A stretch of DNA of 64,000 nucleotides from contig OZ024748.1 in assembly GCA_964016885.1 (NCBI GenBank), positions 1,426,001 through 1,490,000 of the forward strand. Direction: 5' to 3'. The DNA is from Eledone cirrhosa (taxonomy: Eukaryota). Below the pieces are notes generated by a model, which saw only the letters and a program-made list of their open reading frames with translations, was not told the origin of the DNA and did not search any database. Both the position numbers and the translations under genes were made by a program. Shown one piece after another: positions 14,773-56,494 of the stretch; the stretch's first letter is position 1, and each line of letters opens with the position of its first letter.

Positions 14773-14833
14773 TATTTTATCTGAGGAAAGCGTACTTAAA
14801 TATTAGAACCCTTGAAATACGTATAATAAAATA
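14773..14833 (+). ncRNA. degenerate hammerhead motif, same family as 40021
   Basis: TATTTTAT-CTGAGGA-(decayed stem II)-GAAA-TACGTA-TA-ATAAAATA, followed by the same AT-rich tail as the 40021 copy. Confidence 0.55.
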
Positions 14834-22270: not shown

Positions 22271-22562
22271 ATATATCTGTGGTTGTGTATGTGTGTATAT
22301 ATGTCTGTATGTTTGGTCTTTTACAGACCATTTTAGAAAGAAAAGCTGTTGCGAGTTTATATATATATATATAGACTATAAAAGCTATATATATATATAT
22401 ATATATGCACATACATATATATCATATATACACATATACATACACACACACACATATACATATATATACACATATATCATCATGTCATTCTTTTGTGGTT
22501 CTAACAGCCATATACCACACCATACCAGTCCTTTGTGGATATCGCGGCCATGTATATGCGTG

Positions 22563-24478
<1,916 letters not shown>

Positions 24479-24589
24479 CCACACCATGTCAGTCTCTCGT
24501 GGATAAAATGACATACGTTGGAATCGTGAGACTGTCCAAACATCTTTAGATAAGACAATATTACTGGTATTAGATTCAGTTGACAGTGA

Positions 24590-25870
24590 GGGGGAGAGGG
24601 ATGGGTGGGGGGAGGAAGGGGAGGATGGCTTTGGGCTTTGGTAATAGTGTATCTAGCATGGAGAGGAGGGAGGGAGAGAGAGGCATATACATATATACAC
24701 AGGACATAGGAAGAGAAGGGAGAAGCATGAGAGGGAGAGAGAGAGAGAGGAAAGAAGGAGAAAAGACGGGAAAGGAGGGTGAGAGAGAGAGAGAGAGAGG
24801 AAAGAACGGGAAAGGAGGGTGAGAGAGAGAGAGAGAGAGGAAAGAAGGAGAAAAGACGGGAGAGGAGGGTGAGAGATAGAGAGGGAAGAGAAGAGATGAG
24901 AGAGAGAAGAGAGAGAGGAGAGAGCAGAGGAGAGAGAGAGGAGAGAGCAGAGGAGAGAGAGAGGAGAGAGCAGAGGAGAGAGGAGAGAGAAAGGAGAGAG
25001 TAGAGGAGAGAGAAAGGAGAGAGTAGAGGAGAGAGAGAGAGGAGAGAGTAGAGGAGAGAGAGAGAGGAGAGAGTAGAGGAGAGAGTAGAGGAGAGAGAGA
25101 GGAGAGAGTAGAGGAGAGAGAGAGGAGAGAGAGAGGAGAGAGAGAGGAGAGAGTAGAGGAGAGGAGAGAGGAGAGAGTAGAGGAGAGAGTAGAGGAGAGA
25201 GACAGGAGAGAGGAGGGAGAGAGGAGAGAGACAGGAGAGGAGAAAAACAGGAGAGAGGAGAAAAACAGGAGAGAGGAGAGAGACAGGAGAGAGGAGAGGA
25301 GAGAGACAGGAGAGAGGAGAGGAGAGAGGAGAGAGAGAGGAGAGAGACAGGAGAGAGAGGGGAGAGAGACAGGAGAGAGAAGAGAGGAGAGAGACAGGAG
25401 AGGAGAGAAGAGGAGAGAGGAGAGGAGAGAGGAGAGAGGAGAGGAGAGAGGAGAGGAGAGAGGAGAGGGAGAGGGAGAGGGAGAGGAGAGAGGGAGAGGA
25501 GAGAGGAGAGAGAGAGGAGAGAGAGAGAGGAGAGAGAGAGGAGAGAGAGAGGAGAGAGGAGAAAGGAGAGAGGAGAGAGGAGAAAGGAGAGAGGAGAGGA
25601 GAGAGGAGAGGAGAGAGACAGTGGAGAGAGAGAGGAGAGAGACAGTGGAGAGAGAGAGGAGAGAGAGACAAAAGAGATAGAAAAGAGGAGAGAGAAAAGA
25701 GGAGAGAGGAAAAGAAAGAGAGAGAAGACGGAAGAGGAGGGTGAGAGAGAGGAGAGGAAAGAAGAAAGAGAGGAAAGTAGAGAGTTGAGGGAGGAAAGAA
25801 GAAAAGAGATAAAAAAGAGCAAAGAAATGAGAAAAAAGAAAAAGAAAGTAGAGGCAAAGGAGGAGGGGGA
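24590..25870. repeat. ~1.3-kb polypurine (GA/GGAGA)n tract
   Basis: Direct reading. Confidence 0.95.
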
Positions 25871-33750: not shown

Positions 33751-33792
<42 letters not shown>

Positions 33793-33799
<7 letters not shown>

Positions 33800-35198
33800 C
33801 CCTTCAAGCTATAACAGAGGAGTTCAAGACCGGCTGCCCATGGGAACTCCTATACGCAGACGACCTGACACTCATAGCTGAATCAATGGCCGAGCTAGAG
33901 AAGAAATTCCAAACATGGAAGCATAGCCTAGAATCAAAAGGCCTTAAAATTAACCTGGCTAAGACTAAAGTTCTAGTTTGTAGGAAAGAAAATAAGGCGG
34001 CATTCCCTTCCGGGAAATGGCCATGCTCAGTGTGTAGGAAAGGCGTAGGTAGAAACTCCATTTTATGTCCCAAATGCAAAGTATGGGTGCATAAAAGATG
34101 TAGTGGGATCACAGGTAAGCTAACTAAGAACTTAGATTTTACATGTGGGCGGTGCTCTGGTGCAATAAGTAGCAGCGAGTGCCCACAAAATACTAACTCT
34201 TTCAATTGCGCAGAGGGCTCTATAGAAATAGTGGACAGCTTCCGTTACCTGGGTGACAAAATCAGCAGTGGGGGAGGGTGCTCCGAAAGTACAGTAGCTA
34301 GAGTCAGAACTGGATGGAAAAAGTTCAGAGAGCTTATACCACTATTAGCCGCTAAAGGGTTCTCCCTAAAAATGAAAGGCAGGTTGTATGATGCCTGCAT
34401 ACGAACAGCAATGTTGCATGGCAGCGAGACCTGGGCATTGTGCGCAGAGGATATACGCAGACTAGAGAGGAACGAAGCTTGCATGCTCCGCTGGATGTGT
34501 AATAGTAATATACGTGAATGGCAAAGCATAAACGAACTAAGGAAAAAATTAGAAATAAGAGGGATCAGATGTTGTTTACTCGAGAGAAGGCTACGTTGGT
34601 ACGGACACGTGATGCGCATGAAAGTCGATAGCTGTATAACAAAGTGCAGGGCAATAAAGATAGACGGTAGCCACGGAATAGGCAGACCTAGAAAATCCTG
34701 GGACGAGCTGATAAACTCCGACCTCACACACTTACACCTCTCCAAGACAATGTCACTGGACCGAGACCTTTGGCGGTACTCAGTAATAGAGAAGACCCGC
34801 CTTACCTAAATACATAGTAAAACCTACTACAGCCAGTAGGCATCTCTAACAAAATACACCCCCGTCCCACCACCCACACCCCCATCCACACCACCCCCTC
34901 CTATGTAAAGTTATGTTGGTGCCACAACATCCAGGCCGAAACAAATGAGATCGTGTAGGTGTCACGACAAAAAAACACACAGTCCACGCTGTAATGTGGC
35001 CGTGTAGGCAACACGGTAAAAACCTCCCAGCGCCACACTGTAAATGTGGTTGGTGTTAGGAAGGGCATCCAACTGTAGAAAACCTGCCAGACAGTCCTAT
35101 GCGAGCAAGACAATCACTCTTGCCTCAAGTGGGAATACCCCCGTCCAAACCCATGCAAGCGTGGAACACGGACGTTAAACGTTGATGATGATGATGAT
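33793..35198 (+). mobile_element. 5'-truncated RTE-clade LINE with open RT C-terminal ORF and 3' tail, inserted in (TA)n
   Basis: LLYADD at about 33853, INLAKTK, FRYLG, LHGSETW, RRLRWYGHV, GRPRKSW; ORF open to 34809; ends GGACGTTAAACG(TTGATGA)n. Confidence 0.92.
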
Positions 35199-36070
35199 AT
35201 AATATATATAATATATATAATATATATATATAATATATATATATAATATATATAATATAATATATATAATATAATATATATAATATATATAATATATATA
35301 TATAATATATATATATAATATATATAATATATATATATAATATATATATATAATATATATAATATATATATATAATATATATAATATATATAATATATAT
35401 ATATAATATATATATATAATATATATAATATATATATATAATATATATATATAATATATATAATATATATATATAATATATATAATATATATATATAAAA
35501 TATATAATATATATATATAATATATATAATATATATATATAATATATATAATATATATATATAATATATATAATATATAATATATAAAATATATAATATA
35601 ATATATATAATATATATATATAATATATATAATATATATATATAATATATATATATAATATATATATATAATATATATAATATATAATATATATATATAT
35701 AATATATATAATATATATATATAATATATATATATATAATATATATATATAATATATATAATATAATATATATAATATATATAATATATATAATATAATA
35801 TATATAATATATATAATATATATATATAATATATATATATATAATATATATATATAATATATATATATAATATATATAATATAATATATATAATATATAT
35901 ATATAATATATATAATATAATATATATAATATATATATATAATATATATAATATATATATATAATATATATATATATATAATATATATAATATAATATAT
36001 ATAATATATATAATATATATATATAATATATATAATATATATATATAATATATATAATATATATATAATA
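35198..36070. repeat. pure A/T (TATAA)-type microsatellite after the LINE tail
   Basis: Direct reading. Confidence 0.95.
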
Positions 36071-36327
36071 TTGGGTATGAATCAAAGTTGTAGCCACAAT
36101 ATTGCAGATACAAACAGCTTTGTAATATAGACCCAGGGTCGGTTTCAGGTGGTTAGGTATCATGTAGTACCCGAGCATGCTGGCTGAAACTTAGGGTAAC
36201 AGAATAACCCTTTCACTAAAGAAACAAAAAACAGGGTTCCTTATGGCCGCTTCTTAATGTGTTTCAAACAAAGACTGTAATAAAAGAATCATCATCAATA
36301 AGACAAAATGCAAGAATATCTCCATAC

Positions 36328-36495: not shown

Positions 36496-39400
36496 CTAAA
36501 ATATAAATATATTATATCATATATATATATCTATCATATCATATATATATAAATATATTAAATATAGAAATATTCAAACTGAAATTTAGAAAGGCAGACA
36601 TGATAATTTATTACACACCACAAACTGGAAAAATACAGAAATTAATTCACATTTCAGTGCTCAATGTTTTGAGCAAACAAAAGAATAAAAAAAAGGAACT
36701 GATCATCAGATTGAACTAAAGAAACAATGTGTCCATTGGTCTCTCCATTTCTAATCTGCTGGTTGCAATAATAATGGTTTCTTATATAGGCACAAGGCCA
36801 GCAATTTTGGGGGAGGGGGAAGTTGATTAAATCAACCCTGTAAGGATGAAAAGCAAAGCTAACCTCGGCAGGATTTGAACTCAGGACGTAGGTATATGCT
36901 GCAAAGCATGTCCAATACTCTACCTATGCTGGTTGCAATAATGATAATGTTTTCTGATTGAAGCACAAGGCCAGCAATTTCGAAGGAGGGAGAAGTCAAT
37001 TATATCAACCCCAGTGCATTACTGGTACTTTATTTTACTGATCCTTGATGGATGAAAGTTAAAGTTGACAATGGCAAGATTCAAACAAAGAACTGGAATA
37101 AATATCACCATCATTTAATGTCTCCTTTCCCAGCAAAATATTTTGCCCAAATGCTCTAACAATTCTGTGAATCCACTGCCCTATTGTTTCTAACAGAAAT
37201 AAAAACCAGAATTTTTAGGGGCGGGGGAGGTAAATAGTCGATTAAATTGCTCCTAGAAAGAATTTGAACTCAGAATATATTAATTCTGGTGCTCTCTGTT
37301 CTAGTTTAAATTCTAATGAGGTGAACTTTGCTTCTCATCCATCCTACACCATAAAATAAAGCAAATATGTGTATGTATATATGTGCGTGTGTATGTGTGT
37401 GTGTATATTCCACACTAAGGGACATTTTTACTCAATCTTGATGGGACTGATGAAAATGAATTAATTAAAATTATCAATTACATTTATCTTGTTAATGAAA
37501 TGTATGTAGGGTTAAAAATGTCTTGAATTCAGCTTGGCACCAATGACATAGCAACTCATTTCTACAGCTGAGTAAACTGGAACTATGTGAAATAAAGTGT
37601 CTTGCTCAAGAACACAACGTATCAGCCGGTCCAAGAATGGAACTCACAACCTCCCGACTGCAAGCTCAATGCTCTAACCACTAAACCATGTGTTTGTCTG
37701 TATGTAGAGCTAGATATTGTTGACTGAAAAGTTAAGTGTGTTTCACAATCATTAGGTTCCAAGTTCAATCCCACTGAGTGACATCTCAGTCATCTATATA
37801 CTACTAAAACTCTGTGATTGTGTGCTTGTCTGTAATTTAATACAACCAAAACAGCGCATAATGGGAACATACTTTGAAAGGAAGTTACCCCTGAAATGGG
37901 AATACAAATGGAGTAAAACAAGTTTCGCGTAAATTGGAGCCGGGTTCCCGAGATACAGGGTTTTTCCAGGTACCTTCATAAATAGCCAACAGCTCCGTGA
38001 TAACTCCCTCTCTTTCTCTATATATATCATAACCCTCTCTCTGTGTATATTATAACCCTCTCTATATATATATTACTAGACTACCCGTGACCTGTTGGTT
38101 GGTCTAGTTTACCATAACCTCAAGTCAAACCATGGCTTGTGGGTAAAATAGAGTAGATGGAAACCCATTGGAAGGACTGTACTGGTAATTCAAAGGATCA
38201 GGCTTGTTACACACCATTTAACACTGAACCTCACTGAGAATTATGTTAAGAGTAAGAGCAGATGTATTTCTGGAATACTCAACCAATCACTTGTTATATA
38301 TATATATATATATATATGCATATATATATATATACACCTGTGTCATAGTTGAGTTTAAAGCTTGTTTTTTCTTCATGATCATTCTGCTGTATCTACAATT
38401 TAACTAGAATACAAATAAATATCTGTTCTAAACGGTAACAATCTAAAACAAATTACAACTCTACTAATATGAGGAAGTGGCAATACATACATTATCTCTA
38501 GATTTGGTTATTACCAATGAATGCATGCATGATCCTGTAACTCCTGAAGTCAAAGGGGCATCATATTGACATACAGCTTTTCACTGAGCATTTTTAAATC
38601 TGGCAGAGCCCATCTCATTCCTAATGAAGTCCTAGGGTTCCCGACAAACTCATAAGGTTCTTAATAGCCACTAACAGGACTGCCCTAATTAACTCAGTCT
38701 CTTATATTGATTCAAATATTAACTGAACAAAATGCTCAACTTCATTGGTATAATTTAAAAACAATTTTAATATGTACATGTATGTCATCATTCCCAATCA
38801 ATATCTCAACAAAAAGATCATTTAAAAACAATTTTTTTTACACAAAAATTCTAGTTAATCTAGTGTTATTTATAGTATTATTGTTTGTGTGCCATATCTC
38901 TATGTATGAGTACTATCATATTCAATAGAGAGACAGGTTTGCCTTAATAAACAACCACAAAACATCTCGTATCTGTTAAACAACTACAGACTACCTAAGA
39001 TATGTTGTTATAATTTATATTCGGGTGTCGATGAAATGAATACCGGTATTTCAATCGAATAATAAATCACTCCCACAAATGTTGGTAAATTCTTATCAAT
39101 TACATCCGTCTCCAAGATAGACCTAACAACTTATAAAAAAAATATACCAATCAGGGAAAAACGGACGTAAAATGATGAATAAGTCGACCCGACCCTCTAT
39201 TTTATGTTTGAGAAATAGGCAAAAATCCAAACTCCACTTATAAGTCGAGGCAGCTAAACAACGCATTGTTTAAATGACATATATAAGTCGAGCCCCCCCC
39301 TTTTTTTTTCCATTTTATCACCGGTTTGAGAGGGCAGAGTCATATTCCTCGACTTATATTCGAGTACATACAGCATATTTTAAGGATAGTTCGTTGATAA

Positions 39401-40020
39401 GTTTGGTTAAAATTTTAAAGGTGAAACTTATATTTATCCTATGAATTTTTGTTTGAACAAATATGGCCTTGAGAACGGTCATGAATTACTCGTTGGTTTT
39501 TGTTTTTATTATTGACACCAGAAAACTCCCTAACACCTGTCTCTGAGATGGGTTTAATAATATAGTATTTACACAAATGTGCTGTGGGCTTGTGCCATCA
39601 AATTAAACCCCTATGACACAAAACTTCGTATTATTTTGTCACCTTTCCAAAAAACGCCATATGTCGCTACGGTTCCCTGGAGATAGAGAGTTAGAAAGAA
39701 ACAATTATATTAGAGTCCGTAACAACCACATTCCTCACCCGTCCCCTCATATAGTTAAAGAGAAAAAAATTGACAACAGAATTTGAATACGGCAGGTAAA
39801 TGTTGAAGCTTGTTTTTGTTTTAGTTAATTCTTTATCGAGTAAATTATATTTCATAATATTCATAAGCTATAAATGGATGACTTAGTCACCATTGACGAC
39901 GCTCAAGTATCAGTCAACTGACATACACACACATTATACATACATATATATATATAAGGAAAACTTGAACCGTTAAGGTATCTTTTCTTGATTATGTCAA
40001 AATTTATAAAACAAACTTTG

Positions 40021-40081
40021 TATTTTATCTGATGAGAGCGTACCAAAGTTTTGGTACCCTTGAAATATATATAATAGAATA
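40021..40081 (+). ncRNA. minimal type-I hammerhead ribozyme motif (Penelope-like element style)
   Basis: TATTTTAT-CTGATGA-GAGCGTACCAAA(GT)TTTGGTACCCTT-GAAA-TATATA-TA-ATAGAATA: stem I, core, stem II, palindromic stem III, UA cleavage site. Confidence 0.7.
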
Positions 40082-40123
40082 AATATGGTTTTATAAATAT
40101 AGTTTCCATTTATTTAATATCAT

Positions 40124-40170
<47 letters not shown>

Positions 40171-40627
40171 GATAAAGATCCCATAACTCCTTGTGGAGTC
40201 GTAGAGACACCGTTAAACGGTGTGTCTAGGGCACTTTTAAACCCGGCAGAGCACAACCCTCTCCAGATCTCAACACAGCCGATTTTATCTATAGAGCAAG
40301 AATCGAGCCCAGTACTAGATTCGTATTTTTTTTATCGACCTCAAAAGGATAAAAAGCAAAGTTGACTCCGGCGGGATTTGAACTCAGAATTAGCAGATAC
40401 TAATTGAATTGTTTGAGGCAATCACAAAGGACTCAACTGGGCGAGAAATTAATACATTGTCGTCCAGAGTAAACACAAAAGTTAATAACGTGTGACAAAA
40501 GAAAACCGACCAAAAGCAGTGGCCATACTTATACCACAACAACGAGAAATACAAATAGGTTGAAGACATATATATATAAATAAAATAACAGGAGGCTGGA
40601 CTGGTGTAAATCCTTGAAAAGTTTATT

Positions 40628-40685
40628 ATACTATGATCATTTCAATGACCGGGTTCCGTATGAATCCGGTGATATCATCAGGTAT
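40628..40685 (-). ncRNA. mirror hammerhead motif in left arm of long palindrome (sense to HGS)
   Basis: Reverse complement of 40803-40860. Confidence 0.55.
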
Positions 40686-40802
40686 TCGAAATGTAACAAA
40701 GGAATATATAAAATCCATGGGTCCGAAATCAGAGACAGAGACTCTGTCTCTGTCTCTGATTTCGGACCCATGGATTTTATATATTCCTTTGTTACATTTC
40801 GA

Positions 40803-40860
40803 ATACCTGATGATATCACCGGATTCATACGGAACCCGGTCATTGAAATGATCATAGTAT
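40803..40860 (+). ncRNA. hammerhead motif in right arm of long palindrome (third family)
   Basis: ATAC-CTGATGA-TATCACCGG...CCGGTCATT-GAAA-TGATCA-TA-GTAT. Confidence 0.55.
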
Positions 40861-41510
40861 AATAAACTTTTCAAGGATTTACACCAGTCCAGCCTCCTGT
40901 TATTTTATTTATAATAATTAACTCCGTACCACCAACTACACAAACGAAGACGAGTGAACTGCACTACGTTGAGTACTCTCCATAATATTACATCAAGATT
41001 GACCATACGGAATGACCAATTCTATGCAGTGGTGAACCAACAAACCTAAATATATATATATATATATATATATATACTCAGTCCGTGGGATGAGTTAAGT
41101 ATATTATATGACCTGCCGTTACAACAACACGGAATCGGCTGGCCATCCCCGAATCAAAATCGGTCCTTTATTTTTTATTCTTTGTGTTCACTAAAATCAT
41201 GTTCTCATATATAATTCTAAAATTAAAACCTGTTTAATTCGGATGATGAAGCTGGGCCATTGAAATATGTATAGTGTTTTCGAGGAATTAAAATCAGAGT
41301 TTCTAGTCCGGCCTTCTGATGATGTTTTTAATATATACAAAGTTTAATATAGAAATGGCTTCTACAGAACTAGAACTGTTTCATTCAAAAGAAATCATTT
41401 TGAATGAAACAGTTCTAGTCCTGTAGACGCCATTTCTATATTAAACTTGATGTTTACACTCTACTTGAATACCTTACTTACTGTGGTTACCTCCGATTGA
41501 ACCCGGGACT

Positions 41511-41551
<41 letters not shown>

Positions 41552-41871
41552 CATTGAAGTCAATGTCCCAGCATTGTCAATCCCAGCATTGTTACAGTAA
41601 AGTGTCCGGAACCAGAATATTAAAAGAATGTTATATAAAGTTCTTTTTTTTTTCTTCTTTTTACATTTGAAAAGAAGGCATTGCTAGCGTGAGGCGTCAA
41701 TAATTTTCTGTCGATAACAAGGTAGGTACCAAACGACATTGTTTCATGGTTAATAATACTAATAATAAATACACAACTCTTTTGTGTTAACAACAAAACG
41801 AGTGACACCCAACAACAATTAATTAGCATGCCAAAAAGAGAGAAAGAAAAAGAACGAACAGTGACTGCGTG

Positions 41872-41910
<39 letters not shown>

Positions 41911-41979
41911 TTCCAATCTACTGTAAAACTCTTTGATATACTCATTGAATCTTGTTTAACTCTTTAATATATATATATT

Positions 41980-42059
41980 TACAGGGTGTCCCAAAAAATG
42001 TATACACACTTTGATTATATTTATATTGACGTGTGTATACATTTTTGGGATACCCTGTA
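41980..42059. mobile_element. tiny Tc1/mariner MITE; relative at about 43428-43527
   Basis: TA|CAGGGTGTCCCAAAAAATGTATACAC...GTGTATACATTTTTGGGATACCCTG|TA. Confidence 0.75.
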
Positions 42060-42189
42060 TATCTATCTATATATATACATACACACATATCTATGTATAT
42101 AGTTTATTTTGGTTGTATGTGGTTAGTAGAGATGATGGATGTGAACGAAAATCTTTCAAGCAGATCAAGATTGTATATGTTGACAACTA

Positions 42190-42228
<39 letters not shown>

Positions 42229-45200
42229 CACGAAGATATAGTGAAACAAAAATACCGGAAGTCCGCTTGTTTACTTACATAAAACCTAGTGATAATATAG
42301 TAAAAGTATCCCACAAGTTAAGAAGAGAGAAAAAGACTAGGGTCTTTACTACCTTAACATAACCGACGTGGAAAAAAATATAAAAATATACATCCACTAC
42401 TTACTTGGAAACATAATCTGGCGGTGCAGTTATACATACGTACATATAACACCCATATACATGTAGGTATGTGTATATATGTGTCTATTTATTTATATAT
42501 ATGTATATACAGTATATGACTCAAAACGTGTTGGGAAGGGGAGATAACTCAAAATGCTTCACATCGCATCACATGACTTCAACCTGACTGGCTAAGGAAA
42601 GAATAGGAAACTTTATTTCGTAACTAACAAAATCAATAAAATGAAAATCATTGTAAAATAAATAAATATAAAAATAAACAAACTAATTAAAGCCCACATC
42701 CCAGTGATACAGCGCCGTTTACTATAGAATAAGCTGACTGATGTGGTTTTTCAAAGCTGTCTATAGGAGCGGCCAGCTCATATTCTGCAGTACAAGTTAT
42801 TCAACGGATTTTTTTTTTCTTTTCCAACAGTTAGTTTCGAAAAACACACACACACATATATATATTTTAAACTATTGAATTATATAATTTCTAATAGAAG
42901 CACAAGGCCACAAATTTGGGTGTTGGTTGATTAAATCGACCCTAATACTCGACTTGTACTTTATTTTATCGACACCGGAAAGGCAAAGTTGACCTAGGGT
43001 GGGATTCGGATTCAGAACGTAAAAAGCCAGAATAAATACCACAAGACATTTTGTCCGATGCTCTAACGATTCTCTCAACTAACGATAATAAAAGAATTTT
43101 TAATTTTTTTTTCCTCGTTTGACAAAAAAAAAAAAAAAAATGGTTTTGTAGTTAAAATTTAAGGATTATTCAACAGTTGTCAAAAACGTATTTAACCATA
43201 TTTTTGTGTGTACAGAAAAATGTCTAATTTTCGAAGGTGAATTTGATACATAAAAATATATTTGAAATTGTGATTAAAGTTATTTTGATTAGCCATTCAA
43301 CGTTTATAATATTTCTTAGCAGTTTACTGTTCGTTTTAAATATATTTTTATCCGAAAAATCAACAGACATGTGAAATTAAAGTGATAACTATGAGAAAGA
43401 AACAAAATCGAAATAGATCCTATGATGTATAGGATGTCCCCCCAAAACGTATACACACTTTGATTACCTGTACGGGCAATATTTATTAGAATGTTGTTGA
43501 ATGCATTTTGGGGAGACAATTCGTGTATATATATATATATATATGTATATATAAGGATTACACTTTTACCAGTATCAATCATTAGACTGCGGCCAAGCTG
43601 GGAAACCACAATGAGGGCATTTAGTCGATTGTATCGACCCGAGGACTTTATTTTTTTTCAATTCTGACACTTATTTCATCGATATCTTTTTGTCGAACCG
43701 CTCAGTTACGCGACATAAACAAACGGTAAACGTAAACACACACGGACACATATATACAAACAAACAAACATAGGACGGTCTTCCAGAGACTGTCTACCAA
43801 ACATCACTCACAAGGCATAATACCTGTAACAGGTGTCATACACTGGGATTGTTTTATAATGTTATTTTAATAGCTGACGTTAACTAAAATGTATCTCTTC
43901 AACGTGACAACTTCTCTCGTGACACGACAATATAATCATATTGAATGAAATACTGAAAGATTGGTAAAATACTGAAAATTATTGTGTACAGTGCTCAGGT
44001 GCACTACAACTCATCAAAGGTGCATGTATAATACATAGAATAATGTAGAATTGGCCAAATATTCCAAAACAACCACTCCTCAATCAACAAAGAAATCCTT
44101 CACATTTACAGCTTGCTTTGTTTCCAACTCTACACAATGGAATGGACCTCCGTCGGTCTCAACGATGAGTATTCCAGTTGTTCGAAAAATACCAGAGAGT
44201 CCTCGCGAAATCGACGTGTAAGTAGCTGAGCATTCCCCTGACAAACTTACTTCATCAATCTCTTTTTGTCAAACCATTAAGTTACAAGATATAAACACAG
44301 AAAGAGAGAGAGAGTAAAGACCCTCTTCAGTCATGAATCACCATGAGATTTGTACCTAGAAAGTTCCCCTCCAAGGTACAAGTTTGATCAAGGTTGTCAC
44401 CCATGTATACCGGTTTCCCCTCTCCATGCCATTAATGTTGTCCAAAGGAAAAAGGAAGGACTGATACAATTTGGCATCAGTGGTGTCGTGACTCATTTCT
44501 ACAACTGAGTATACTGGAGTAAGATGAAATAAAGTGTCTTGCTTATATTTCTTCCATAAGATAATGAGATAAATTACGTGAATATTCCTTCTTTTACAAA
44601 TATGTAAGCGTTGTAATAGGTTAAGAGAAAATTACTTTTCATTAAGTTAAGTTTATTTAATGTAAAATAAATTTTGTCACAGAAAATGACAGAGGTAGAA
44701 TGTGTGTGTATCATCCCTGTCTAACATCCATTTTTCTACGCTAGCATGGGTTAGACGAGTTGTCCTGTTGTGAGAAATGCCAGGTCAGGTGACCATGCCT
44801 TGCTCATACAGAACTGCTTCTGGTTTGGTTTCTATGAATGGATGCCCTTCCTAATGCCAACCACATTTACAGTGTGGGCTGGGTGCTTCTTGTGGCACCT
44901 ACACGACCACTTTACAGTGTGGGCTGGGTGCTTTTTGTTGTGACACCAAGTACAGCAAATTGCCCATGGGGTGTGTTTATGTTTGTGTGTGTTTGCATGT
45001 ATTTTCATAAAGCTTCTTTCAAATAAAAACATTTAGGAATTTAAAATATGGAAATCATTTACAAACTTTTTTTTAAAATCTTATACATTTTCAAAGTCTT
45101 TTACAATGGCTAAAGTCGAGGGGATAAGAAATACATATATATATATATATATATATATAGGTAGAAGTTCTATTTAAATTGTTGGGATACAACAAGCAAA

Positions 45201-45344
45201 TATTTTTATAACTGATATAAAGCACTCAACAAATTATTGGAATGCAACCATTTCTGTTGGAAGCTCTATCCGGGAGCTTCCAACAGAAATGGTCACATTC
45301 TTTAAGGGTATGTCAATATTTATTTATAAAACTGATCTATATTA

Positions 45345-45409
45345 TATTTTATCTGATGAAAGCACACCATAATTTAACTTGGTGACCTTGAAATACGTAT
45401 AATGAAATA
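45345..45409 (+). ncRNA. minimal type-I hammerhead motif, same family as 40021
   Basis: TATTTTAT-CTGATGA-AAGCACACCA...TGGTGACCTT-GAAA-TACGTA-TA-ATGAAATA. Confidence 0.65.
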
Positions 45410-46988
45410 AATATTGTTCCATTTGTTAATATATCGTATATATATATTTATATATTGTTCTATGCACAAATACACATATATATATATACAGCATATAAAA
45501 TACATCAATTGAGAGCAAAGCTATGTCATTGCAAGCAAGCAAATTATGTTAATAATTTGAAAAATAATAGCAAAACAAATAATAAAAGTGATGGTAATGA
45601 TGATGGCGGTAGTGGTGGTGGTGGCAATGGTGGCAGTGATATTATGTACTTTGGAACAAACTATTAGTTTCTTACATGTGACATGACAGTGTGTGAAAGA
45701 AAGGGAGAGAGAGAGGGCAATAAAAAGAGAGAAAGCTAGAATTTAAACTTTTAATTTTTTTCGGTAATTATGAAGAAATTTACCTCAGATAAAAATAATG
45801 ACAGTCACCCCCACATAGCCCTTACACTAAGCCTAGTCCTCCATACTCAGAGCATCATCCACACGGTTACCCACACTGCTGTTTCTGGTACTCATTTTTC
45901 TAGCTGAATGGACTTAAACAACGTGGAATGAAGTGACTTGCTCAAAGACACATTGCACCACCTGATCTGGGGTTTAAAACCAGGTCCTCACAATCCCGAA
46001 ACTAACAAGCTAACCACACGGCCATGTGTGTCTTCATCGTACACTAGTTATCCTCACAAACATACCTGCCAATCTTACCAGTCTTGTGTTCTTGGTGGTG
46101 ACACAGTTTAGTACCGGATGTCACTGACGTTCCATCAGGATAAATATTTCACAATACAGTGAAATTCCGTTATAACGAAATTCACGGAGTATAAAGAAAA
46201 ATTCTTTATAATGAGACCGACCGAAACAAATCGAGCGTTTGTTTGTTATTAACTTGGGGACTGAAAACAATTTTGTTATGGTATTCATTATAATGGAATT
46301 TTACCTGTATTAGTTTATTTCCAAATGTCACTGCCGTTTGAGTGAATTTAGTTTGATACACATTTGAACAATGAAAGCATGTGGCTTCGTGGTTAGGCTG
46401 TTGATTTCACAATCCTACTGTTGCAAGTTCGAAACTACCCTCTGGCCTATATATATTATGCTTGAATACCTTGCAGTCCTTTCATTTACAGGGACACCAG
46501 AAAATGATCTATGACCTCAAGGAATCTTGACTTTTATGCTTTTCATTACATGTGTGTATCAAGTATATAAAGCTAATATTTTAAACACATGTAAGCCCAC
46601 ACATGTACATGTACACAAATGCAAATACATATATGCAAACACTTACACACAAACAACTATGCACAAGTGCCACGTTTACACACAGACATCTACACACGCA
46701 CGTGTGTATATACGTAAATACCTATGCATGCACACATGCATGACAACAACCTAAAAGGTTCACAGGCAGTGTTTAAACACACTAAACTAGGAAACATAAA
46801 CCAGAGAAGAGAATTAAACATTGAGGGTAGAAGTTCTAGACAACTGGAACTTAGAAACACTTGATGGTGGGAGGGCTGACAACTTGTTAACAGTGAAATA
46901 AATCTACTCAACTAAGAAATACTATATAAACCAGAGCAGGTGTATGGATGGTGGGTATGTGGGTTCTAAACACAGAATCAGAACTTAC

Positions 46989-53148: not shown

Positions 53149-53583
<435 letters not shown>

Positions 53584-53609
53584 TATATATGTGTGTGTGT
53601 GTGTGTGAA

Positions 53610-53997
53610 GGCACATGGGTTAGTGGTTAGAGCATTGGGCTTGCAATCGAAAGGTTGTGAGTTCAATTCTCAGACCGGGAGATGTGTTGTTTCCTTGAGC
53701 AAGACACTTTATTTCACATTGCTCCAGTTTACTCAGCTGTAGAAATGAGATGATAGGGACTGGGGTCCCTATCATTCCACTGCAAAGTGGACGTGTAGGC
53801 GCCATGGAAAAAAAGCACCCAGCACTCACTGTAAATGAGGTTGGTGTTAGGAAGGGTATCCGGCTGTAGAAATCAAGCCAGATTCAGTTCCCGTATGAGC
53901 AAGACAAGATCAGCCGACCGGACACTGCCCACAACAGGACAACCCGTCTAACCCATGCTAGCATGGAAGAACGGACGTAAAACGGTGATGATGATGA
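53610..53997 (+). mobile_element. tRNA-derived SINE family A (full length)
   Basis: A-box TAGTGGTTAGAGC, B-box GAGTTCAATTCTC, body CCTTGAGCAAGACACTTTATTTCAC, RTE-like tail GGACGTAAAACGG(TGA)n. Confidence 0.9.
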
Positions 53998-55236: not shown

Positions 55237-55367
55237 CTGAAATAAATAAAAAGAAAGGATATAAACATCTCTATCTAAACAGACTACTAGTCATCGTCGC
55301 TGCTACCACTGCCACCACCGTCATAGCAACAGCACTATCATTTTACAGGGTGGGTTAGGTGGTTTTT

Positions 55368-55990
55368 GTCATGGCACCAACACTACCACCTTACAGGGTG
55401 GACTGTGAGCATTTTGTCATGGCACCAGCACTACCACCTTACAGGGTGGACTGTGAGCATTTTGTCATGGCACCAGCACTACCACCTTACAGGGTGGACT
55501 GTGAACATTTTGTCATGGCACCAGCACTACCACCTTACAGGGTGGACTGTGAGCATTTTGTCATGGCACCAGCACTACCACCTTACAGGGTGGACTGTGA
55601 GCATTTTGTCATGGCACCAGCACTACCACCTTACAGAGTGGACTGTGAGCATTTTGTCATGGCACCAGCACTACCACCTTACAGGGTGGACTGTGAGCAT
55701 TTTGTCATGGCACCAGCACTACCACCTTACAGGGTGGACTGTGAGCATTTTGTCATGGCACCAGCACTACCACCTTACAGAGTGGACTGTGAGCATTTTG
55801 TCATGGCACCAGCACTACCACCTTACAGGGTGGACTGTGAACATTTTGTCATGGCACCAGCACTACCACCTTACAGGGTGGACTGTGAGCATTTTGTCAT
55901 GGCACCAGCACTACCACCTTACAGGGTGGACTGTGAGCATTTTGTCATGGCACCAGCACTACCACCTTACAGGGTGGACTGTGAACATTT
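55368..55990. repeat. 48-nt minisatellite, about 13 near-identical copies
   Basis: Unit ATTTTGTCATGGCACCAGCACTACCACCTTACAGGGTGGACTGTGAGC. Confidence 0.95.
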
Positions 55991-56494
55991 CAACATAGCT
56001 AAAAAATATAGATTGAAGAAGGGGAAATAATTCAAATAAGATGCCACTAACAGGGCTGACACCAGGAAGAGCAGCTGACCATTTAACATAGACACAAAAA
56101 AGGTCACATGGTGAGTATAAAGACTCATGGGGGTCATGTAAAGCTGACCCCTACTCTAGCAATGAAAATTACTTTAAAACCCTCAATGTACCAGGAAAAT
56201 ATGTAGCTGATCTCTCAGACTCTCAGCACTGAGAATATAAAGTTATTATAAAGAATAGAGACGCTATAAAATAGCTTATAACATGGGGACCTTTTAAGGG
56301 TTTTCCCCTTATTTCATAAGCTAATTTATAGCATCTCCACACATAAGCACATCATTCTTTATATTAACTCAATATGCCGTTGTACTCCATTAATTTTCAT
56401 TCACATCCACATCCACCATAGGGGTTTAGAATCCATGAGATCAGCAAAAAGTTAAAAAACAAATAAATAAAAGTAATAGAGTGATATGACTTAC

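Follow-up and report, generated by a model that had tools for sequence, protein, structure and literature searches.

A perfect 339-base palindrome in an HGS intron of Eledone cirrhosa is very probably a short copy, mirrored head to head, of an abundant non-coding hammerhead repeat, likely inserted into a (TA)n target by the reverse transcriptase (RT)/endonuclease of a Hydra-type Penelope-like element (PLE) acting in trans, by two-ended priming. Mirrored insertions of this repeat family nearly always pair two different fixed ends, here called site A and site B. The observation is real and its cause is ordinary; only the A+B rule of the family has wider interest. The window is the whole 64,000-nt stretch that was analysed, and all positions below are counted from its first letter.

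The palindrome and its repeat family

The two arms, at 40575-40742 and 40746-40913, are complementary at 168 of 168 positions around the loop TCT, in agreement with the mismatch-free 168-bp arms and 3-nt loop of the preliminary description. The sequence also shows the reported start of the left arm in a TA run (40567-40576), which we read as the left remnant of the (TA)n target because family ends abut (TA)n. The left, shorter arm is an inverted, 5'-truncated pLTR copy on the minus strand with its outer end at site A, and the right arm is the 5' part of a long pLTR copy on the plus strand. Beyond the right arm, the long copy continues into a one-sided tail of about 140 nt between the two end sites (40914-41056, plus strand). 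This tail, earlier called pLTR-like, is indeed family-derived; it carries a 6-nt deletion near 40927, reaches about 41051-41056, where a second TA run follows (the right target remnant in the sequence, 41052-41076), and stops just before a hairpin motif common to tandem copies and an autonomous PLE. The central junction (40738-40751) holds the loop (40743-40745) and an additional CTCTGT unit, which none of 52 other copies has at the same place and which likely arose by slippage or microhomology joining. Further right, at 41340-41448, lies a separate high-copy repeat, an imperfect palindrome of 110 bp, and a query with this flank returned 3,406 first-look candidates.

The family is abundant. 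Exact patterns for two halves of the hammerhead motif occur 4,553 and 2,781 times in the genome, while the reversed controls occur 0 times, in agreement with a hammerhead core in the family itself. The right arm and tail are 94-97% identical to other loci (40 scored of 2,834 candidates). The first 100 listed copies form 19 head-to-head pairs at a distance of up to 2 kb, of which 13 are within 400 bp, and 0 tail-to-tail pairs. Scaled up from one part of contig C1, this gives roughly 865 pairs within 2 kb and 590 within 400 bp, both rough figures. The palindrome is not rare, and a special interest in it finds no support: hundreds of mirrored pairs are estimated, and close opposite-strand hammerheads have been published (PMC4209133, in its available part). 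Longer copies have a unit of 2.0-3.1 kb with direct terminal repeats; at L031, L032 and L080 these repeats lie 2.0-3.1 kb apart, the partial tandems expected of pLTRs. A second, very young subfamily (L073-L105) is about 86-88% identical to that of the window and has a different non-coding body of 3.1 kb, and many of its copies are identical across the hammerhead arm.

The identity of the arms had been ascribed to recent origin or gene conversion. The first stands and the second is not needed: the subfamily is young, 11 of 46 inverted-arm loci show 0 mismatches (median divergence 1.9%), and some palindromes with a short spacer have arms that diverge by 4.6-8.5%. Against the arm, the closest of the other copies shows 1 difference in 167 sites and several others show 2, and across the inverted-arm loci rare variants are unshared between the arms 128 times and shared 23 times. 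The perfect arms fit a recent origin from one template, which on sequence grounds would suffice; they are identical because both were likely copied recently from the same RNA.

Paired end sites and the mode of insertion

Copies of the family have one of two ends in front of (TA)n: site A, which is the palindrome's outer end and lies about 55-57 nt past the hammerhead cut site, or site B, where the tail ends, at about +200. One exact site-A junction alone has 96 occurrences. The pairing of ends was scored at 31 mirrored loci, obtained from 33 loci picked solely by opposite-strand pattern pairs plus the window, minus three without an exact anchor on both arms; their source, contig C1 lists and exact patterns, favours young copies. 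By the position of the TA run, 26 of the 31 loci have one A end and one B end (26 of the 28 that could be classified, p=3e-6), and by tail markers the same is true of 30 of 31. Among these 30 A+B loci, 18 are symmetric on a lenient alignment, the A arm extends further 5' in 6, the B arm does so in 5, and 1 is ambiguous. On a strict walk, the spacer is at most 5 nt in 7 of 30 loci, window included. Of 30 loci selected for their A end, 5 have a B arm that covers the tail alone and stops at about site A.

We infer that the enzyme would cut both strands of the (TA)n target and that each of the two DNA ends would prime cDNA, with starts at site A and site B of the element RNA. A head-to-head joint would then link the two truncated cDNAs, in the window at the CTCTGT repeat with a 6-nt slip. 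A target-site duplication is unreadable in (TA)n, and we count this against the preferred explanation.

A less probable account, rather unlikely overall, is that a single cDNA started at site B, folded back at the AGAG-A-CTCT mini-hairpin and copied itself, the product then being cut or joined at site A. Self-priming has been proposed for inverted PLE junctions in the part of PMC3846280 available to us, both window arms end at the same base, are identical and flank a 3-nt loop, and for the many near-symmetric loci a fold-back is the simpler explanation. However, it cannot yield the 6 of 30 loci in which neither arm was copied from the other, because there the tail sits on the B arm and the A arm is the one with the greater 5' extent, nor can it yield the loci whose B arm spans the tail alone. 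The asymmetric loci therefore need two separate primings. The symmetric junction of the window fits either two primings or a fold-back, and for this locus alone a fold-back is possible.

More tentatively, and with somewhat less confidence than we would give to the opposite view, we propose that, after one double-strand cut, a Penelope-type RT dimer uses a single RNA to prime both DNA ends, each at its own fixed start site, both sites being determined by a shared hairpin, that every mirrored insertion is consequently A+B, and that Hydra-type enzymes mobilise unrelated non-coding RNAs via the hairpin.

Two-ended priming can be set beside what is published on PLEs. The preliminary statement that PLEs often insert with inverted terminal-repeat fragments is borne out by the accessible portions of PMC3846280 and PMC8557442, which describe inverted pLTRs, palindromes at the junction and a tail on one arm. 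As far as those portions go, EN+ PLE insertions resemble the window family in their head-to-head 5'-truncated copies, junction palindrome, one-arm tail, microsatellite targets and partial tandems. They have a tail of 30-40 nt, compared with about 140 nt here, and the window family differs further in being non-coding and in that A+B pairing has been counted. In the Poseidon element PAc of Anolis, two internal RT start sites define the tail (Frangieh et al. 2024, PMC11167929). PAc shares with the present family two start sites downstream of the hammerhead, an AC-rich start region, cutting and extension of both strands and AT-rich targets; it shows no strand difference in the start site, whereas here the two ends of an insertion nearly always start at different sites. 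Literature searches of titles and abstract openings returned no account of the window repeat family or of strict A+B pairing, although the supplements of PMC8557442, which according to its available part list Hydra hammerheads, may hold the architecture.

Class of the family, candidate helper and hammerhead motif

The Penelope-like origin first suggested for the palindrome agrees with the pLTR-type tandems, the one-sided tail, the (TA)n targets and the hammerhead. The family has the features of a non-autonomous PLE: a hammerhead within the pLTR, an inverted 5'-truncated copy with a one-sided tail, microsatellite or AT-rich targets, fixed 3' ends and variable 5' ends. The family units examined contain no long coding ORF (RT plus GIY-YIG) as expected of an autonomous PLE, and 30 copies that read through site B contain no ORF downstream of it. 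It is improbable that the family is instead a non-LTR retrozyme, whose short tandem monomers are copied from a small circular RNA. Such retrozymes are likewise non-autonomous, carry a type I hammerhead and are linked to PLEs (bioRxiv 10.64898/2026.07.22.740005 and PMC7229834, both in the parts available), tandem copies are present here too, and the consulted part of the former proposes that retrozymes derive from PLE pLTRs. Their arrays of short monomers nevertheless contrast with the 2-3 kb unit in partial tandems found here, and the loci examined contain no short-monomer arrays.

A candidate helper for this non-autonomous PLE family, proposed from sequence features, is an ORF-intact 738-aa Hydra-type element in the same genome. 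A hammerhead with the architecture of this family precedes the ORF by about 235 nt, and copies of the element terminate in front of (TA)n at about +50 or +140. Past site B, the repeat family and the 738-aa element have in common an AC-rich stretch and the same small hairpin; their alignment scores 42 against a best of 38.5 in 1,000 shuffles, a significance that is optimistic since the region was picked by eye beforehand. The two share short cis motifs rather than overall sequence, and a blastn comparison of the repeat family with 30 ORF loci gave no match at E 1e-4.

The PLE/Hydra label of the 738-aa protein rests on motifs compared with the available part of PMC8557442. The protein, as read at L157 and L203, has cysteines at 597, 599 and 605 (CxCX5C), at 695 and 698 (CxxC) and at 722, the last with a histidine (CxH), carries RWR instead of RWK, lacks CCHH and belongs to an element with (TA)n targets. 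This cysteine pattern appears to fit the Hydra clade as that part of the paper defines it. Hydra-clade PLEs (Craig et al. 2021, PMC8557442, same part) match the 738-aa element in CxCX5C, CxxC, CxH and an RWK-like motif, and both lack CCHH, carry hammerheads and use (TA)n targets. Pfam and PDB searches with the protein gave no match; it has 275 homologues, almost all of them without a name, the best named one being a hypothetical protein of Argonauta hians at 40%, and this suggests that the host is a cephalopod. The loci L203 (G000:C7:78450500-78460400), L204, L205 and L157 hold this young PLE in 4.0-kb tandems and inverted arrangements, and the element has at least 150 matches near 98% identity.

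The hammerhead of the family is of type I, with the core CUGANGA, GAAA and UH. On the plus strand, antisense to HGS, the motif spans 40803-40860, with stem I ATAC/GTAT, CTGATGA at 40807, a 31-nt stem II, GAAA, TGATCA and TA, and a predicted cut after 40856; the mirror copy at 40685-40628 on the minus strand is sense to HGS pre-mRNA. Both strands accordingly have the type I layout, with the core in each arm and the 4-bp stem I originally noticed, a stem II with U.U and C.C mismatches and the palindromic stem III TGATCA. The imperfect base of stem II pointed out at the same time is real and family-wide: among the first 100 listed copies, U stands at 10.1 in 100 and at 11.1 in 99, and the usual 10.1-11.1 base pair, typically G-C, is absent. 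Because the U.U is near-universal among these copies, it is the family norm rather than a sign of decay. A natural hammerhead with U.U at 10.1/11.1 is described in the accessible part of PMC3088659.

A structural descriptor found 170 matches in 546,647 fetched bases, which are loci enriched for the motif, whereas the reversed sequence gave 0 and so did every one of 5 block shuffles, which puts the motif above chance. The descriptor yielded 75 distinct motifs from several families. Position 4 of stem II is unpaired in all 75 and is C in 74, and stem III is a 6-nt palindrome in 74 of 75. The sequences of stems I-III are swapped between the families of the genome with pairing kept, a covariation that supports the three stems, although the descriptor itself demanded pairing (controls 0). 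Other PLE hammerheads have an additional unpaired base after A9; on inspection by eye such a base was rejected here, as the register without a shift pairs better across families. The Rfam hammerhead models gave no match to the window motif, and with an E-value threshold Rfam returned only microRNA-type hairpin matches below the gathering score. The plus strand of the window contains three further hammerheads of other families, at 14781, 40029 and 45353, with the C.C mismatch in stem II and a palindromic TACGTA or TATATA as stem III; inverted pairs occur as well in the family at 45353, for which there are 818 first-look candidates.

The ribozyme of the window is predicted to be inert. The active monomer fold has -0.9 kcal/mol compared with -14.9 kcal/mol for the best fold, and in the model a double hammerhead (-18.4) loses to the best dimer fold (-33.4). 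Prediction suggests that the hammerhead would work only as a same-sense dimer; Lunse et al. 2017 reportedly dealt with dimer cleavage. In the consulted part of PMC4209133, a single minimal motif is uncleaved and dimers cleave at a low level. In the window, its partner is antisense and the hammerhead itself is locked in a 168-bp duplex, which underlies the prediction, and this copy is likely dead as an element because it is without the downstream hairpin. For PAc, ribozyme mutants had no effect on insertion in vitro (PMC11167929). The same part of PMC4209133 describes PLE hammerheads that have in common with ours a short stem I, a long stem II, a palindromic 15.2-16.2 and predicted use as dimers, and reports opposite-strand pairs 100-700 bp apart, which are seen again here. 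They differ in having G10.1-C11.1 where this family has U10.1.U11.1, and the C.C mismatch at position 4 of stem II, found in several families of the Eledone cirrhosa genome, is likewise unlike them.

The HGS intron and the meaning of the insertion

HGS lies on the minus strand, with VHS, FYVE, UIM and Hrs_helical in separate exons (Pfam; 5 of 8 HGS segments matched with E below 0.001). The palindrome sits within an intron of about 10.4 kb on that strand (about 36496-46931 by its splice sites; a small exon may have been missed), so that exon domains and splice sites agree with the intronic placement given at the outset. The expectation that the antisense arm is made first in HGS pre-mRNA and sequesters the ribozyme is in line with the predicted fold of the minus-strand hairpin, in which the ribozyme motif is fully paired. 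The hairpin would plausibly be an ADAR/Dicer substrate in HGS pre-mRNA, where it would be one among many intronic dsRNA stems.

That selection or gene conversion maintains the hairpin as a regulator of HGS is very unlikely, and jointly with it so are its variants, an editing/siRNA substrate or a lock against cleavage of the pre-mRNA by the ribozyme. On the HGS strand, the prediction is a 168-bp duplex without mismatch, and both other descriptor matches in the same intron (40029 and 45353) are antisense to HGS. However, arms at other short-spacer loci diverge freely, with the same excess of unshared over shared rare variants, a monomeric ribozyme would in any case be weak by prediction (from the fold and the available part of PMC4209133), and about 40 further inverted-repeat pairs of at least 60 nt lie in the HGS region. 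The regulatory reading finds no support in the analysis, and an ordinary PLE footprint is likely the better account.

Other features of the window include an imperfect palindrome of 600 bp (88%) that belongs to another repeat and sits in an HGS intron (53302-53894), a tandem array of 45-bp units with open frames (55327-56030) and long degenerate TA-rich microsatellite arrays at about 22400-24650 and 35100-36150. A 351-aa open frame at 33754-34809 on the plus strand, antisense in an HGS intron, may represent the C-terminus of a non-LTR retrotransposon RT, which it resembles, with a PHD-like Cys cluster.

An assembly or library fold-back artefact is scarcely credible: the arms are perfectly identical and no read or contig bridging the centre or junctions was seen, but the mirror terminates exactly at the fixed end site A of the family, the two flanks are unlike each other, the tail is one-sided, and dozens of loci have the same layout with arms up to 8.5% divergent. 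RAD reads and contigs (6 of 12 runs) contain the repeat family at very high depth and are uninformative on the window locus, as no piece spans the centre or a junction and the unique right flank is uncovered at 99%. A right-flank query against the assembly found no second haplotype and no empty site.

Taken alone, the window locus is of small importance, being one of several hundred estimated similar insertions. The near-obligate A+B pairing and the hairpin common with the Hydra-type element bear on how the inverted repeats and tails of PLEs form. If the proposal is true, the repeat family names an enzyme and an RNA for the study of PLE inverted repeats and offers hundreds of natural events. 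For Eledone cirrhosa itself, the insertions contribute numerous near-perfect dsRNA stems in introns, and these, if transcribed, could be relevant to RNA editing.
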